Below are positions 29,490 to 64,000 of a stretch of DNA of 64,000 bases, piece by piece (positions within the stretch are counted from its first letter, which is position 1; each line of letters opens with the position of its first letter). The notes under the pieces are model-generated. The model did no database searches. It was not told the origin of the DNA and worked only from the letters and a program-made list of their open reading frames with translations. This stretch comes from a virus, in the IMG/VR virus record IMGVR_UViG_3300043410_001256, positions 1-64,000 of that record, one strand, 5' to 3'. A program made the position numbers and the translations under genes.

Positions 29490-30212
29490 TTAGCTAGATT
29501 GTACTTGTACAGTGATGTCAGTTGCACTGACGTTGCCTGTACCGCTTACGCTGTCAAATGTCCACTTGTAGCTTTCACCTGTTGAGCTGTAAACCTTACG
29601 GTCAGTGATTTTGGAAATGTTAAATTGCGAACCATCTGAGAATGTAGCAATAACAGTCATTGTGCCTGCGCTGTATGGGTTCAAGTTAGGACTTGTAACC
29701 AATTTTACTGTTTCAGAATATGAAGCATTTCTGCAGATCCATGTTCTGCTACCACGTTGTTTCACCATGTCAGCATTCCAATCACCGTAACTTGCGCCAG
29801 TAAAGAATACGTTTGCACGAATAGCAGCCGCAGTTGTTCCAGATGTTAGTGTTGCTGTAGCACTTGCCGCTCCAGAGTTTGCACCAGTGAATGTGATTGC
29901 TGGGTTAGCAGTGGTATAGCCTGCACCAGCGTTGCCCAGTGTAAGTGCTTTAATAGCACCGTTAGCAAACAAATGAACTGTGCTAACTGTAGCAGTTGTT
30001 CCGCCTGCTAATAGAGGTGCGGCAATAGTTGCAACAACGTTTGCGCTGTAATAACCAGTACCACGTGTAATACTGTTTAGTGTAATGTTACCAGAAACAT
30101 CGGCTGCAATTGATTCTCCACCAATACTCGCGGTACCGCTTTGACCACCGTCACCACCTGTGGCACCGTATGTTCGTGGATTATAATATTTTTTCTTAAT
30201 TGGACGTCCCAT
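29490..30212 (-). CDS. Virion structural protein downstream of the capsid gene (possible head decoration/fibre)
   Basis: 240 aa, A/T/G-rich, with G.GY repeats. It has a strong AAGGAG RBS, its own late promoter and a terminator. Confidence 0.6.
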   Translation of the reverse strand: MGRPIKKKYYNPRTYGATGGDGGQSGTASIGGESIAADVSGNITLNSITRGTGYYSANVVATIAAPLLAGGTTATVSTVHLFANGAIKALTLGNAGAGYTTANPAITFTGANSGAASATATLTSGTTAAAIRANVFFTGASYGDWNADMVKQRGSRTWICRNASYSETVKLVTSPNLNPYSAGTMTVIATFSDGSQFNISKITDRKVYSSTGESYKWTFDSVSGTGNVSATDITVQVQSS

Positions 30213-30285
30213 TGTTTTCTCCTTGTGTTATGGCGTTCTAGGCCTACGCAGTGGGTCTGCATAAACTCTCCTTTCAGAGCGAACA
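30213..30285 (-). promoter_or_regulatory. Structured 5' leader (putative three-way junction)
   Basis: UGUUC/GAACG closes two hairpins: CUCU-GAAA-GGAG and UUUAUGCAG-ACCCA-CUGCGUAGG. It lies between the late promoter at 30289 and the RBS. Confidence 0.55.
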
Positions 30286-30288
30286 TTA

Positions 30289-30296
30289 TATTTACC
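30289..30296 (-). promoter_or_regulatory. Late promoter (GGTAAATA)
   Basis: Directly before the structured leader of 30212. Confidence 0.68.
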
Positions 30297-30303
30297 TAAT
30301 AGT

Positions 30304-30332
30304 TTGCTTTATATTGTTGTCTGCTATATAAT
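30304..30332 (+). promoter_or_regulatory. Sigma70-type promoter TTGCTT-N17-TATAAT
   Basis: Consensus -10 and 17-nt spacer. Same -35 as the promoters in front of gp55 and gp47. No plus-strand ORF follows. Confidence 0.8.
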
Positions 30333-30336
30333 AGCT

Positions 30337-30405
30337 ACAGGTGCTAGTCAGACAGCATCCTGTTTAGTTAGGTACCCGGAGTAGAAATGCTCCGGGTATT
30401 TTTTT
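30337..30405 (+). ncRNA. Putative ~69-nt small RNA
   Basis: Bounded by the promoter at 30304-30332 and a plus-strand terminator. 5' hairpin ACAGG-UGCU...AGCA-U-CCUGU, then a 9-nt single-stranded linker UUAGUUAGG. Confidence 0.65.
30373..30405 (+). terminator. Intrinsic terminator of the putative sRNA
   Basis: TACCCGGAGTA-GAAA-TGCTCCGGGTA followed by T7, on the strand opposite to all flanking genes. Confidence 0.85.
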
Positions 30406-30412
30406 ATCCAAC

Positions 30413-30435
30413 AAAAAAGCGCCTTGCGGCGCTTT
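30413..30435 (-). terminator. Intrinsic terminator of the head operon
   Basis: Minus strand AAAGCGCC-GCAA-GGCGCTTTTTT, ~45 nt after the capsid stop codon. Confidence 0.9.
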
Positions 30436-30478
30436 CCTGCTCCTCCCATCCCTGAGTGGATTTTTTTATAATGTGTGA

Positions 30479-31660
30479 TTATTGGAAAGACAAAGTACCA
30501 GAAGTGATACCAACCTTAGCCAAGTAGTCACCAGCGTTACCTAGAGAAGACGCTGTGTTTGTCAACTCAACATATCCGTAACGAGTCATAAAGCCTACGA
30601 CTGGTTCGAATGTGTTTGGATCTAGAACAACACCAGAGCTCATTAGAGGAACATATGGGCAATAGAATGCTGCCGCATCTGCTTCGCTTGAACCCTTGTA
30701 ACCGATTAGAACGGCTGTACCTGTGTTTGCATAGCTGTCTACGTAAACACGCATAGCGCCATTCAATGTACCAACAAACTTGGTGTTTGTAGGTGCTTCG
30801 AATGTACCTTCTGTTGTACGAGCAAAAGCTGAAGTAGTTGCAGATTGCAATACTGTTAGAGCTTCAGCAGATACAACTGCCCAGTTAGCCGCACCACGAC
30901 GTGTACGCTGAGCGATCAAGTTTGCACTACGGTTGATTAGAACTGCCAATGCGGCATGCTCGTCACCAACGAAAGTAGCTGTACCAGAAACTGTGGACTG
31001 GTCATATGTGAATTCAGTTGCTGCCAATGAACGTAGGCTTGCCAAAATTTCTTGGTCAATTTCAACTGTGATTTCTTGTGCCAAAGCTGCCATGATTTCA
31101 GCTTCAACATCTAAACCGTGCATAGCTTGAGCATCTTGAGCTGCCTCAAATGTCCAACGTGCGCTTAGTTTACGTGTCTTAGCTTCGACAACTTGTTTCA
31201 AGATTTGAACGTTGATACGGTTACCAGGTGTACCTTCTAGGGTACTAGTAGCGTATGCCTTGCTTGTTGCTGGGTTACCAGAATAAGCAGTTGCAATCTT
31301 GAATGGGCTTAGTGCTTCGTCACCAGCTAGTGCGCCATCTGTACCTGTAGTTGCGCTAACAGTGTCAGCATAACGTACACGTAGAGTATGGATTTGTGCA
31401 ACTGGGCCAGTCATTGGCTGAACACCAACGATTTCGTTAGCAATAACGGTTGGCATTACACGACGAATCACTGGTAGAATAACGCGATTCAATGTTGCTA
31501 CGTTGCTTGAGCTAGTAGCACCAGCAGTTGCGTTTTCTGCCAAGTACTTGCGAGTGTTCTCTAGGATCACACCCATGCTGGTTCTCTTAGAACCTTGTAG
31601 GCCTTCTAACAGGGCTTCTTTTGTTTCGCCCCAACGGCTCTCTAATAGTGCGGTTGTCAT
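30479..31660 (-). CDS. gp23: Major capsid protein (T4 gp23 family)
   Basis: GVQPMTGP, KTRKLSARWTFEAAQD..A.HGLDVEAE, FYCPYVPL and TRYG motifs. Confidence 0.97.
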   Translation of the reverse strand: MTTALLESRWGETKEALLEGLQGSKRTSMGVILENTRKYLAENATAGATSSSNVATLNRVILPVIRRVMPTVIANEIVGVQPMTGPVAQIHTLRVRYADTVSATTGTDGALAGDEALSPFKIATAYSGNPATSKAYATSTLEGTPGNRINVQILKQVVEAKTRKLSARWTFEAAQDAQAMHGLDVEAEIMAALAQEITVEIDQEILASLRSLAATEFTYDQSTVSGTATFVGDEHAALAVLINRSANLIAQRTRRGAANWAVVSAEALTVLQSATTSAFARTTEGTFEAPTNTKFVGTLNGAMRVYVDSYANTGTAVLIGYKGSSEADAAAFYCPYVPLMSSGVVLDPNTFEPVVGFMTRYGYVELTNTASSLGNAGDYLAKVGITSGTLSFQ

Positions 31661-31685
31661 TTTATTTCCTTCTCCTGTTTAGGGT

Positions 31686-41297: not shown

Positions 41298-41813
41298 TTA
41301 TGAACACAGAGTACGAACTACTTTAACGTGTTCGTTGTGTTCCCAAAATTTATCGTAATCGTAAATGAGCCAGGAGCCGTGTTTGTCTGATTGGTAGAGA
41401 AGATGTGGTATCGATAGATCCCAATGTGTGCCATGTTGTACCGCTACAAACATGCCTTTGCGGTTGAACTTCATGAACAGAATATTGAAATCACCTTGGT
41501 CGGCTACATCCAATGTTTGCTCAATCCAGTCATCCAGCTGTTTGCAGGAGCCTTGAAAGAGTTGATGAAATGGAAAGTCTTTGTAACTTTTGCACTCAGC
41601 ATTGAACTTTGGGAAACTCTGTCCAGGAATAATATCCCCTTTGAAGCTTCTTATTTGTCCCTCGTGCAGTATCTCTTTGCGATTTGCATTTGACCCGCCA
41701 ATATAAGCGCCAGAATGCGGAACGCGGATAAAGCGTTCTCCATAGGTAACAGTAAGGTGATCTGCCACCTTGCGTTCCCATGCATTTCCTTTTGCTTTTT
41801 GTGGACTGGTCAT
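41298..41813 (-). CDS. Hjc-type PD-(D/E)xK Holliday junction resolvase
   Basis: KGNAWER...R.P.SGA...GDII...F.AECK motif order. Confidence 0.85.
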   Translation of the reverse strand: MTSPQKAKGNAWERKVADHLTVTYGERFIRVPHSGAYIGGSNANRKEILHEGQIRSFKGDIIPGQSFPKFNAECKSYKDFPFHQLFQGSCKQLDDWIEQTLDVADQGDFNILFMKFNRKGMFVAVQHGTHWDLSIPHLLYQSDKHGSWLIYDYDKFWEHNEHVKVVRTLCS

Positions 41814-46422: not shown

Positions 46423-46451
46423 AGTATAGACAGTTGTAATGACAAAAGCAA
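46423..46451 (-). promoter_or_regulatory. Sigma70-type promoter TTGCTT-N17-TATACT for gp47
   Basis: 17-nt spacer. The -10 ends 8 nt before the ATG. Confidence 0.75.
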
Positions 46452-61200: not shown

Positions 61201-64000
61201 GTAAGCGGTGGTTTGATCACTGCCTACACCATTGACTATGCTCAAACAAAAGTAGCAAAGGTGTTAAGTTCTACACAGTTTGTAACAGACAAGAATGTAA
61301 CAATTCGTGCTGGCGCAAAACTGGTGTTTGCAGGTGTTCCTGCTACTGCTATTGCACGTAGCGATGGTAACTCCATTTATAATATTTCCGTTACCAATGC
61401 CGGCTCCGGATATGCATCTGCACCAACTGTTACCATTGAAGACACACAAGGTAACCAGGCCACTGCAACTGCTGTGGTAAATGATAATCTTATTAGCTAT
61501 GTTGAAATTGTAAACCCAGGCGCTGGTTACAAAGTTGGTGAAAATGTACAAGCTGAAATTGTAAGTTATGTAGAACTGAAAACATCGGCTACATCAACTT
61601 ACGGAACTGATACTTTGTATTTTGCAGAAGGCACAGACCTTAGTGCAATTAAACCAGGTTGGTTGGTATTCTTGGTTTCTACTATTAACGGCAATGAGTT
61701 GTATACAGATTTTGGATTGACTCCGTATGCGGAAACAGATTACACTGGACCAAATCCGGATGACTACATTTCGTTTATGGATATTGCACTAACACGTGCA
61801 GATATTCGTACAGTTGTTACTGTGGACACCGATCGTTTGGTATTAGATGGGCCTATTAGAAGCTTAGACTCAGATGGCGAAGTAATTGACTTGCCATTGG
61901 ATTCCAAGATTTTTGTAACTTGCCAAAGCAGATTCTTCACAGAAGACGGTTATGGTTCTAGTGCTAGAGTTCCAGGAAATACAAAATCTGGATTCCTTAG
62001 TGTTGCAGAAATCGTAACTGGCAATGAAATGGTTCTAGACACCGTTGCAGGTGTACAACCTGGCATGGTAGTTAAAGATGTATCTGGATACATTTCCTAT
62101 ACCGTTACTGTATTAAACGTTGATGCTTATACTAGAAGAATTAAACTTTCCGGTGACGTTACTGTTCCAGCACTAACACCAGTTTATTTCAACAACAATG
62201 CAGACATAACAGCAACCATTGCATCATCTGAAATTGACTACATTGACATTACAAATTCAGGTCGTGGATATGTACATGCTCCACAAATAACTATTGAATC
62301 ATTGTATCCTGTTGTTACCAAGGTGGCAGCATGTACTGGCAGCACAAATTTAATCACATACCTTGATCCAACAACTCTAGCACCAATTCAGTACCAGTCT
62401 GGTAAAGTACTAAAAGTTGACACCTACACTGGTGTAGTTGTTGGTGCAAAAGTAACAAGTACCTATGATAACTTTGGTGTTGGTTTAACCACTGGTGCAA
62501 ATACACCTAAAGTTGTAGCATTGGTTCTAGAACAAACAGCGTCTGCGGTGTTTGAAAAGAGAATTGTATTAGATATACTACAACCTGAGTTCAGTGACAT
62601 CGAAGTAACATTTACCTATGCCGCCGAAGCAGTGGCATTAATTGATCAGCAGAACTCTGCAATAGATGTCGAAGACACCACACCAGAAACATATGATGTT
62701 GGCGATACTGTGGTTGTTAATATTCCTACTAACGCTAGACAAACTTCGACTAATATTGTTACATACAATCAATATTATTTTACAGGCACAGAATGGTTGC
62801 CTGCACAACAAAAATCAGACACCAATCAAGAACCACTGTTTGATGCGTTTGATAAAAATGGATACAGTGCCGGCGATGGTACTACATACCCTGGTACTAA
62901 ATTCACAGGTACCAAGATCTTTGGATATCGCATAGGCTCGGGTAAAGCAGACACTGTGCTGAATTTCTCACTGACCTATAAGAATTTCCAAAACGTTGGT
63001 GATATTGAATTCTCTAACTACTTCCAGACCGATACGTTTAGTTACTTGTTAGGGTTTGGCGAAGTTTCAATTCCAATTAAGAACTTTGTTCTTAAACAAA
63101 GCACCAGCGACAGTTATCGTTTAAGAAACATCTGGACTCCAGTTACTGAAAAATCAAAACAGTATCAGGTTATCACACATCAATATGATGGTACAACCAA
63201 CTATTTTGAAGTTGACATTGAACCAGAAACCAGCAACACAATACCTTACTTAAAAGTATTTGTTGGAACTACCCTGCTGGATTCAACACAGTATGTGCTT
63301 ACACAGTTTGGCGGTCGCAAGGCTATTGTTATTAACACATCTAACCTTGACACCAACAAACAGGTTATTATTAAAATATACAGCAAGTCACAGTCTACAA
63401 TTGGACATTATGAAACACCAGTTAACTTTGATTTGAATCCATTGAATAATAACTTTGAGTATTTGACACTGGGACAAATTAGAAATCACCTGGTTACCAA
63501 AACACAAAATCACTATGGTTTAGTTGGCCCAACACTGGGAAATAATAACCTACGCAACATTTCTAATAAGAGCTGGCAAGGCTCAATTCTACAACACGCA
63601 AGTCCTGTGGCCATGGCAGCTTTGTTTATGACAGACAAAGATTTGAATGTTGTTCAGGCAATCGAATTTGCACAAAAAGAATATTCTAAGTTCAAGAATC
63701 GTTTCTTGGACATGGCAGCTAAGTCACAGATTGACCCATACGATATTCCTGCATCGGTTGATCGTGTATTAGAAAGCATCATGGTAGGTAAGAGCTCAAT
63801 GAGCCCGTGGTACGACAGCGACATGGTTCCATACGGATCAAAGTTCCGTAAAACCACTCGCATACCAGTGTTGAATGTAAGACAAAAAACATATCTGATT
63901 CCAGATACTTTTGATCCTACTGTGCTATCTCGTCGTGCGGTATTGGTATACTTACAAGACACAACCACTAGAACTGTTCAACAGTTAATAAGAGGAATTG
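58282..64000 (+). CDS. Giant baseplate protein (gp7-like), 3'-truncated, >1900 aa; absent from the ORF track
   Basis: ATG at 58282 (MSIKSINLLPEVFRSETNKKFL...). No stop codon was seen where the frame was read, and it is open at the window end. Contains N.G.GY...P.V.I repeats and an H.L.DGD.I.I...G..ELN..YYV module. Confidence 0.8.
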   Translation, partial: MSIKSINLLPEVFRSETNKKFLAATVDQLISEADTTVRVDSYIGRQDAPAWSTGDTYIKEPNTDRKNYQLESSVLVDAGQGQTDFYNGYLDLLQQISYYGGLTNDHSRLFSSDSYTFDGCFDIDKFVNFTQYLWLPNGPPEVTVTASNLDVSSLYNVSRSLAVQGYQFTEFGNDKNPIITLIKGQTYRIKVNQPGHPFWIQTNLGATGTYSESATELSRRVLGVNNNGIDVGEIEFSVPAGNAQDTFLTAKTAATVDFATTKKYSQIQGAMTNQLALIGGIDGVSQGLNGKTLIFLTDDNNNDAWTDPGNFDVGTENGQPGTFDYDGEGFEAGDTVAGVNRKGIFRIRLVSVAGGRQIVKLDPIQQVALGEKVYVKAGTKNSNVEYLLNQSNQYEAVPPLTASLDTLYYQDGSDNKFAGIIRLVNPGTETINIDEDIVGKVNYTSPNQVVFTNGLHVRFDDTAIPSSYANNNYIVEGVGDAIKLISIGNFSSPENYAQLSNLATPDYITINRASRDLNAWSRSNRWFHIETIESAAKYREEPALLDISGIQRAKRPIIEFDPDIYLFDYGRTAKSPVDIIDFTITDAFKEVEGQTNYVIRMPNGVTRALTAGTRIIFAADEDPEVNNKIYRVDFITTSTGTQIHLVSQNTSTLPTYTVNSAVITSNLSYNFIPSVTFSSPLPGIGTEVATGNVVLKTSGVDSIGVNNSGISYVADPYISISSDYTTAVETNIVYQPYKHVDYIRLVARGTGYTATNPNVHISNPNTYYAVISNATVGQFGLTFEANGITTSQWLGIQPGAQVIGNGIIGGTIITAVDQTANLITINAPAISANVDSVPPISGITTVAIGDQWVFKTNVTAGTYAVVQSTVQNAKTVTVDDTSMIDVGMIVSGGERPISISSIRIDVVPTRVITSSLHNLNDGDLIFIRDIVGTVELNFSRYYVKRISETAIDLYTDSSFSTAAQQDSRNFTDYVSGGLITAYTIDYAQTKVAKVLSSTQFVTDKNVTIRAGAKLVFAGVPATAIARSDGNSIYNISVTNAGSGYASAPTVTIEDTQGNQATATAVVNDNLISYVEIVNPGAGYKVGENVQAEIVSYVELKTSATSTYGTDTLYFAEGTDLSAIKPGWLVFLVSTINGNELYTDFGLTPYAETDYTGPNPDDYISFMDIALTRADIRTVVTVDTDRLVLDGPIRSLDSDGEVIDLPLDSKIFVTCQSRFFTEDGYGSSARVPGNTKSGFLSVAEIVTGNEMVLDTVAGVQPGMVVKDVSGYISYTVTVLNVDAYTRRIKLSGDVTVPALTPVYFNNNADITATIASSEIDYIDITNSGRGYVHAPQITIESLYPVVTKVAACTGSTNLITYLDPTTLAPIQYQSGKVLKVDTYTGVVVGAKVTSTYDNFGVGLTTGANTPKVVALVLEQTASAVFEKRIVLDILQPEFSDIEVTFTYAAEAVALIDQQNSAIDVEDTTPETYDVGDTVVVNIPTNARQTSTNIVTYNQYYFTGTEWLPAQQKSDTNQEPLFDAFDKNGYSAGDGTTYPGTKFTGTKIFGYRIGSGKADTVLNFSLTYKNFQNVGDIEFSNYFQTDTFSYLLGFGEVSIPIKNFVLKQSTSDSYRLRNIWTPVTEKSKQYQVITHQYDGTTNYFEVDIEPETSNTIPYLKVFVGTTLLDSTQYVLTQFGGRKAIVINTSNLDTNKQVIIKIYSKSQSTIGHYETPVNFDLNPLNNNFEYLTLGQIRNHLVTKTQNHYGLVGPTLGNNNLRNISNKSWQGSILQHASPVAMAALFMTDKDLNVVQAIEFAQKEYSKFKNRFLDMAAKSQIDPYDIPASVDRVLESIMVGKSSMSPWYDSDMVPYGSKFRKTTRIPVLNVRQKTYLIPDTFDPTVLSRRAVLVYLQDTTTRTVQQLIRGI

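Follow-up and report, generated by a model that had tools for sequence, protein, structure and literature searches.

We identified a compact, strongly constrained RNA gene amid the late structural module of a widespread clade of freshwater jumbo phages. The gene is conserved and previously undescribed, and its sequence points to a plus-strand RNA of about 66 nt, running from G30340 to around position 30405, which we predict to be a phage-encoded, trans-acting small RNA (sRNA). That it is a real, functional RNA gene is highly probable, and its action as a base-pairing regulator is probable. The best explanation of the data, to which we assign a probability of roughly 0.45, is an independent gene for a trans-acting sRNA of ~66 nt that would pair with the leader of the capsid gene, most likely via the complementarity between the linker sequence UCCUGUUUAG and CUAAACAGGA in that leader. 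The original prediction made for this DNA had proposed a self-contained small RNA gene of the trans type, equipped with a sigma70-type promoter and a terminator of its own, a description that we retain, and among the options that it offered a seed-pairing sRNA is the best reading. Two observations go beyond it, namely that the invariant linker is complementary to the capsid leader, and that the terminator is directly followed by a methyltransferase ORF in four sister genomes.

The window, i.e. the whole stretch of DNA analysed here, comprises the first 64 kb of a 94.9-kb IMG/VR fragment (estimated to be 27% complete) of an uncultured freshwater phage. It belongs to the T4-like jumbo phages. 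The 393-aa gene at 30479–31660 on the minus strand encodes a major capsid protein (MCP) of the Gp23 family (PF07068, E = 1e-99) and is weakly similar to 121Q/GAP32-type phages at the nucleotide level. In a crude ORF map, all ORFs from 1206 to 39731 lie on the minus strand, a 38.5-kb block that agrees with the ~38-kb all-minus stretch described initially. The sRNA element is found in a 266-bp gap (30213–30478), the longest within this block and the second-longest among the called ORFs of the 94.9-kb genome. Read along the minus strand, this gap contains, after the MCP stop codon, a GGGAUGGGA hairpin, the MCP terminator, the sRNA element in reverse, a late promoter box (30287–30296) and a structured leader resembling the freshwater-2 RNA, followed by the next gene. 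The MCP terminator (AAAGCGCC-GCAA-GGCGCUUUUUU, 30413–30435, minus strand) is convergent with that of the sRNA and is kept, with its TTTTTTGTTGG tail, in MCP relatives. The late promoter of the next gene, GTAAATAT, belongs to the T4-type TATAAATA class and stands back-to-back with the sRNA −35 hexamer, with 7 bp between them; a (C/T)ATAAATA-type box precedes most late genes of the genome and occupies the same place in relatives. Neither a tRNA nor a tmRNA was found in the window by ARAGORN.

Two other elements of this gap deserve mention. The leader of the 240-aa gene that follows the MCP gene (30210–30281, minus strand) matches the Rfam family freshwater-2 (RF02980) with 47.2 bits and E = 2e-5, just below the cut-off of 49.9 bits. 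It starts right at the predicted start site of the late promoter, precedes a highly variable Gly-rich gene (MGRP...) and is conserved in many relatives. The GGGAUGGGA box (30441–30458, minus strand), located in the MCP 3′ UTR just before the terminator, forms a short hairpin with a GGGA loop and is kept across relatives of 77–97% capsid identity, being also present in L004, L007, L009, L014, L016, L021, L022, L027 and L031. Metatranscriptome contigs (X10, X11, X21 and X22) cover the coding part of the MCP gene and not 30279–30402, contigs being unable to reveal a 66-nt RNA; the freshwater-2 leader is partly covered by contigs of one metatranscriptome run.

All parts of the sRNA gene lie on the plus strand, as originally described. 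The promoter combines the −35 hexamer TTGCTT (30304–30309) with the −10 hexamer TATAAT (30327–30332), and the predicted RNA of ~66 nt would extend from the putative start G30340 to the end of the U-tract (30340–30405). It opens with a 5′ hairpin, GGUGCU-AGUCAGAC-AGCAUC, made of 6 bp and an 8-nt loop (30340–30359), continues with a U-rich unpaired linker of 10 nt, CUGUUUAGUU (30360–30369), and closes with an intrinsic terminator whose 11-bp stem and GAAA loop (30373–30398) precede seven T residues (30399–30405). The candidate seed UCCUGUUUAG, corresponding to RNA nt 19–28 (30358–30367), falls mostly in the linker, and the region of nt 21–30 shows unpaired probabilities of 0.5–0.9. The 69-nt stretch folds with −32 kcal/mol (z = −6.5), and none of 200 shuffles folds as well. 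Two boundaries drawn initially had to be moved: within the 27-nt hairpin proposed at 30337–30363, the inner part 30340–30359 stands while the three outer pairs (ACA/UGU) are not conserved, and the unpaired linker is indeed present with the extent of CUGUUUAGUU instead of 9 nt.

Throughout the 94.9-kb genome, the motif TTGCNN-N16–18-TANAAT has a single intergenic match, which is the sRNA promoter. This promoter is absent from the list returned by a simple promoter scanner because TTGCTT fits just three of the six positions of TTGACA, and the terminator is the best hit of the scanner in the region. Two other TTGCTT-N17 promoters occur, on the minus strand at 46451 and 47403, in line with the −35 likeness noted in the original prediction. 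Sites of the form TGCTT-N-TAnnnT before genes are too few in G000 or in the sister genome G001 to define a TTGCTT “middle-promoter” class, and the sRNA −10 box, placed 15 nt downstream of TTTGCTTTA, departs from the geometry of T4 MotA boxes. More generally, sigma70-type TTGNNN-N17-TATAAT sites are enriched in the intergenic DNA of G001, with 14 of 49 matches in 5.4% of the genome, and from these sequences the phage group appears to use sigma70-type promoters. G001 also possesses a family of strong early-type promoters, GGTTGACCAAAAA-N-TATAAT with a 17-nt spacing, before small genes (e.g. at 41405, 59577, 59878, 314918, 331259 and 331454, plus strand), a class distinct from the TTGCTT promoter of the sRNA. 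A covariance model of the sRNA (R1) retrieves one copy in the window (92.3 bits, E = 5e-22), and the sRNA is likewise single-copy in G001, a complete sister genome of 354,959 bp with terminal repeats.

Copies of the sRNA were searched in IMG/VR and in JGI metagenomes by exact-pattern scans with pieces of the transcribed region. This led to 11 distinct copies including that of the window (the others being L082–L085, L087, L091–L093, L099 and L101), all at the same syntenic place; L094, L086/L098 and L104 differ from counted copies in the promoter region only. The original prediction had suggested examining the promoter–terminator pair in relatives, and the 10 further distinct copies keep both. 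In the sRNA-bearing relatives, the capsid protein is 93–97% identical and the nucleotide sequences are 78–89% identical. Across the copies, the two promoter hexamers never change and are always separated by 17 nt, while the sequence of this spacer varies freely, as do the 7 nt that separate the −10 box from G30340. It is precisely with this G, the eighth nucleotide past the −10 box, that conservation sets in, for which reason we set the length of the RNA at ~66 nt rather than the 69 nt first proposed. From this nucleotide onward, a single position out of 30 varies among copies: G2 is replaced by A in L091, L092 and L104, which converts a G·U pair of the hairpin into an A-U pair. The 5′ hairpin folds identically in 11/11 copies, and the seed UCCUGUUUAG is invariant in all of them. 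Five overlapping search patterns were used, such that any single substitution of the core in IMG/VR would be caught by at least one; the invariance of the core is therefore not an effect of ascertainment.

The terminator, in turn, varies in sequence and is preserved in structure. Its stems range from 10 to 15 bp among copies, with GAAA, GCAA, GCGA, GUAG or CAAGUU loops, and pairing is found in 100% of the cells of the alignment, with five of nine pairs changed on both sides; the covariation score was reached by none of 500 shuffles. U7 is invariant in all copies. By comparison, the neighbouring MCP gene varies in these genomes at 135 of 170 four-fold degenerate sites (79%). Invariant hexamers, core and U7, together with a free spacer and a covarying terminator, fit a plus-strand unit made of a promoter, an RNA and a terminator.

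A peptide encoded in the core was considered and rejected. The corresponding mini-ORF (30340–30367, plus strand), (G/A)UG CUA GUC AGA CAG CAU CCU GUU UAG, starts with GUG, or with AUG in the G2A variants, and displays no synonymous change in 11 copies. Because these eight codons remain without a synonymous change while 79% of the four-fold sites vary in the MCP gene, it is the RNA, not a peptide, that is under selection. The element thus has the features of a stand-alone sRNA gene, with its own conserved promoter and terminator and no selected internal ORF.

The distribution of the sRNA is narrow. No homologue was found in 80 MCP relatives with 77–86% identity (L001–L080), from which we conclude that the family is confined to a sub-clade. 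In these 80 loci, blastn aligns just the flanking freshwater-2 leader and the MCP terminator, and model R1 gives no credible antisense match, the best one (L077, 24 bits) being on the MCP strand. A blastn search of the intergenic region against 50,697 GenBank phages returned chance matches only, and no near-identical stretch of the core, searched as a 20-nt piece, was found in 185,579 genomes of prokaryote species. In metagenome contigs, the core pattern retrieved the phage copies and two unrelated chance matches. A gapped pattern combining promoter and linker recovered no copy with another hairpin and one chance match (L166), and the exact 22-nt terminator pattern had no match, as expected since the terminator varies.

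Regarding the target, the seed UCCUGUUUAG (RNA nt 19–28) is perfectly complementary over 10 bp to CUAAACAGGA (31673–31682, minus strand), located at −22 to −13 from the AUG of the MCP gene. This candidate site lies in the 25-nt intercistronic leader between the scaffold and MCP genes and overlaps an upstream SD-like AGGAG. The start regions of all ORFs of the window’s genome (53) and of G001 (420) were scanned, and the MCP leader was the top duplex match in G000 and in G001, CUAAACAGGA being the only linker match of at least 10 nt among the start regions of either genome; the duplex between UCCUGUUUAG and CUAAACAGGA is worth −12.7 kcal/mol. Every sRNA-bearing locus possesses CUAAACAGGA, compared with one of ~80 sRNA-less relatives (L018), the leaders of the others reading CUAAAUAGGA, CUAAUUAGGA or CUAAAAGGA.

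Several points temper this assignment. Seed and leader site are both invariant within the clade, leaving nothing that varies to be scored as covariation, and their co-occurrence follows phylogeny and is confounded by descent. A rough estimate of the nominal chance of a match of at least 10 nt in a pre-specified gene start region with AGGA is ~0.002–0.003. In G001, ~20 complements of 10 nt exist on both strands, three of them in start regions where 0.24 would be expected from shuffles that do not preserve UCCU; since the seed holds an anti-SD-like UCCU, the chance of start-region matches is raised. RNAduplex energies over start regions were no better than those of shuffles, these energies being inflated because of long interior loops, and we thus relied on contiguous complements. 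Comparable anti-leader elements were sought in other clades, where only noise arose, from shared Shine-Dalgarno words. Finally, the site at −22 to −13 is upstream of a better-spaced SD (AAGGA, −11 to −7), so that repression is not assured. Given this evidence, we hold the capsid leader to be a credible true target, at a confidence that falls somewhat short of even.

A working model can be sketched as follows. Host RNA polymerase would start at the sigma70-type TTGCTT-N17-TATAAT promoter and proceed against the late structural genes. The transcript would comprise the 6-bp 5′ hairpin and the 10-nt unpaired U-rich linker and would stop at the intrinsic terminator with U7. It would be made before, or independently of, late transcription. 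The seed UCCUGUUUAG could then pair with CUAAACAGGA and cover the upstream SD-like AGGAG, so that translation of the capsid would be lowered or delayed until the late message out-titrates the RNA; such a threshold device could let scaffold, protease and portal get ahead of the capsid. Here we infer the synthesis of the RNA, its 5′ end and its timing, as well as the pairing and its sign. The complete scenario, in which an sRNA of a lytic jumbo phage sets a threshold or a delay on MCP translation and may also act on a distant phage gene, is accordingly offered as a tentative proposal that we judge rather doubtful as a whole. If true, it would represent sRNA-based post-transcriptional control of virion stoichiometry, which to our knowledge has not been described for T4-like phages. 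As far as we know, regulatory small RNAs of phages come almost only from temperate phages and prophages, and lytic and jumbo phages have hardly been explored for them. The 10-bp pairing with the capsid leader offers a concrete and falsifiable hypothesis.

The foremost alternative, which we regard as unlikely, also invokes a base-pairing sRNA and places its main target elsewhere, in another phage gene or in a host mRNA, the capsid match being secondary or coincidental. It draws on the fact that the whole 30-nt core is invariant and not the linker alone, which suggests more than one interaction surface. In G001, nt 13–26 of the sRNA pair at 13 of 14 positions with AAAAAGGAUGCUGU, at −16 to −3 of a 101-aa ORF located 176 kb away. 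However, the partner of this site in the sRNA is the 3′ arm of the 5′ hairpin, itself mostly base-paired. G003 gave no match to the start region of the 101-aa ORF, and 39 other relatives of the protein in IMG/VR lack this upstream sequence. The species genomes screened above hold no near-identical stretch of the core. The start region of the 101-aa ORF (MNERIKELEKQ...) reads AAAAAGGAUGCUGUAAAUG, at ~62,896–62,914 of G001 (L111:2880–2915). Its N-terminal motif MNERIKEL is common to many paralogous small ORFs in related phages, the upstream regions of which differ.

In four loci (L082, L084, L087 and L094), the sRNA is followed by an ORF for a SAM-dependent methyltransferase of 230–252 aa (PF08241, E = 3e-12), which is absent in seven of the 11 copies. 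The ORF, antisense to the structural block (L084:9816–10508; L087:6239–6967), starts 18–20 nt past the U-tract on the same strand as the sRNA. It lacks a Shine-Dalgarno sequence, has no space for a promoter of its own and must therefore be read through from the sRNA promoter. Compared with sister genomes, it represents a clean ~720-nt indel that lies between U-tract and MCP terminator. At least three gains or losses are needed on the MCP tree to explain its presence, and the well-supported sister pairs L083/L084 and L093/L094 differ in this respect.

This arrangement opens the improbable reading that the element is a 5′ leader or attenuator of a methyltransferase cassette, the window retaining only what remained once the ORF had been deleted. 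The four genomes just described, with their methyltransferase read through from the sRNA promoter, are what speaks for it. Against it, the seven copies without the ORF keep the hexamers, the core, the paired terminator and U7; with at least three changes on the tree, their integrity argues that the RNA is maintained in its own right and not as the relic of a leader. The deep G001/L099 branch in particular lacks the ORF and is intact despite 79% of four-fold sites changed, whereas a relic would decay. A riboswitch or attenuator would always stand upstream of a same-strand gene, and in seven of 11 copies what follows directly is the convergent MCP terminator. We found no competing antiterminator fold in which the invariant core would pair with the variable arm of the terminator, since the arms change and the core never does, and by inspection nothing in the core is complementary to UACC(C/U)GG, the conserved base of the stem. 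Moreover, a 40%-identical methyltransferase in L090 belongs to an ordinary operon without this sRNA leader. The methyltransferase ORF looks like a passenger depending on read-through, and offers an example of such an ORF riding behind an sRNA terminator at an insertion hotspot.

Other explanations dispense with base pairing. The original prediction had envisaged a decoy, in which the RNA would titrate a translational regulator or another RNA-binding protein via an RBS-like sequence, namely the UAGGUA at the junction between linker and terminator. UAGGUA does precede the gp21- and gp22-like start codons, and the 5′ hairpin with its 8-nt loop is invariant with no pairing partner found. Nevertheless, the junction varies among copies (UUAGGUACC, UUGAAGUACC, UUGGUACC, UUCAAUACC, UUCGUACC or UUUUUAAGAUACC), so UAGGUA is not under selection, and no candidate protein emerged, which makes a protein sponge very improbable. 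Marginally less credible still is an element acting on DNA or transcription, either an operator-like repeat or an antisense promoter–terminator pair that insulates or occludes the late promoter. A 6-8-6 inverted repeat (GATGCT-N8-AGCATC) does span +1 to +20, and two polymerases could exclude each other because the sRNA −35 hexamer is just 7 bp from the divergent late-promoter box; such a function would, however, explain neither why the non-palindromic linker CUGUUUAGUU is invariant nor why selection keeps the terminator stem paired and U7 intact on the plus strand. Solitary CRISPR repeat units share with the element a length of ~30 nt, a hairpin followed by a 3′ handle-like tail and a promoter of their own, and the idea that the 30-nt core imitates a host repeat, as an RNA anti-CRISPR or a solitary CRISPR-repeat mimic, is given hardly any credence, the 185,579 species genomes holding no array or core match (exact patterns miss diverged repeats) and the metagenome contigs yielding just the phage copies and the two chance matches mentioned above.

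Returning to the pairing sRNA, we compared it with known systems. No family of Rfam 15 matches the element at its gathering threshold, the best scores being those of NsiR1 (22.7 bits, cut-off 39), STnc240 (20.7 bits, cut-off 55) and STnc390 (16.9 bits, cut-off 50); the NsiR1 and STnc240 matches reflect a common architecture only. By function, the closest described case would be the c4 antisense RNA of phages P1 and P7 (RF01695; Citron and Schuster 1990), which acts in trans on a phage message by blocking its ribosome site (PMC12197685). Both are phage-encoded small RNAs with a short complementarity, predicted in our case, at or near the RBS of a message of their own phage. They have no similarity in sequence or structure, and RF01695 is not among the Rfam matches of the sRNA. 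The c4 RNA occurs in temperate phages, where it is released from a longer transcript and governs immunity (ant). The sRNA, by contrast, has a gene to itself, from promoter to terminator, in a jumbo phage of lytic type, with the capsid gene as candidate target.

Hfq-type trans-acting sRNAs, such as DicF or those with a RybB-like architecture, are found in Gram-negative bacteria and prophages. Like them, the sRNA has ~60–70 nt, a sigma70 promoter of its own and a 5′ part that is conserved. A single-stranded, U/A-rich segment leads straight into a Rho-independent terminator ending in a long U tail, and a candidate seed of ~8–10 nt is directed at a translation initiation region; both U7 and the U/A-rich UGUUUAGUU are invariant. 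Unlike them, it has no homology to any Rfam sRNA family. In structure it resembles Gram-negative Hfq-type sRNAs, and by sequence it belongs neither to these nor to the c4 family. The OOP RNA of phage lambda and the sar RNA of P22 resemble the sRNA in being short, in possessing a promoter and a terminator of their own and in running opposite to neighbouring genes. They are, however, cis-encoded antisense RNAs that overlap their target genes, whereas neither a coding region nor a known mRNA is overlapped by the sRNA, whose candidate target lies 1.3 kb away, beyond the capsid gene. OOP and sar are both listed in PMC12197685.

With respect to its surroundings, the sRNA gene is a small promoter-plus-hairpin module that occupies a plastic, intergenic insertion site in a T4-like phage. 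The same holds for the PeSL cassettes of T4, promoter-early stem-loop mobile modules that are repeated, variable and flank genes. The sRNA differs from them by being single-copy in G001 and in the window and by its invariant transcribed core of 30 nt. The usual layout in the 80 relatives consists of the MCP terminator, 10–40 nt, and then the late promoter with the freshwater-2 leader, or else an inserted gene is found between the MCP terminator and the late promoter. This place, where the window has the sRNA, is an insertion hotspot: L007, L008, L009, L014, L016, L018, L021, L024 and L027 carry, ~50–100 nt after the MCP stop codon, SGNH/GDSL-like genes, HNH or GIY-YIG-like endonuclease genes, or antisense ORFs.
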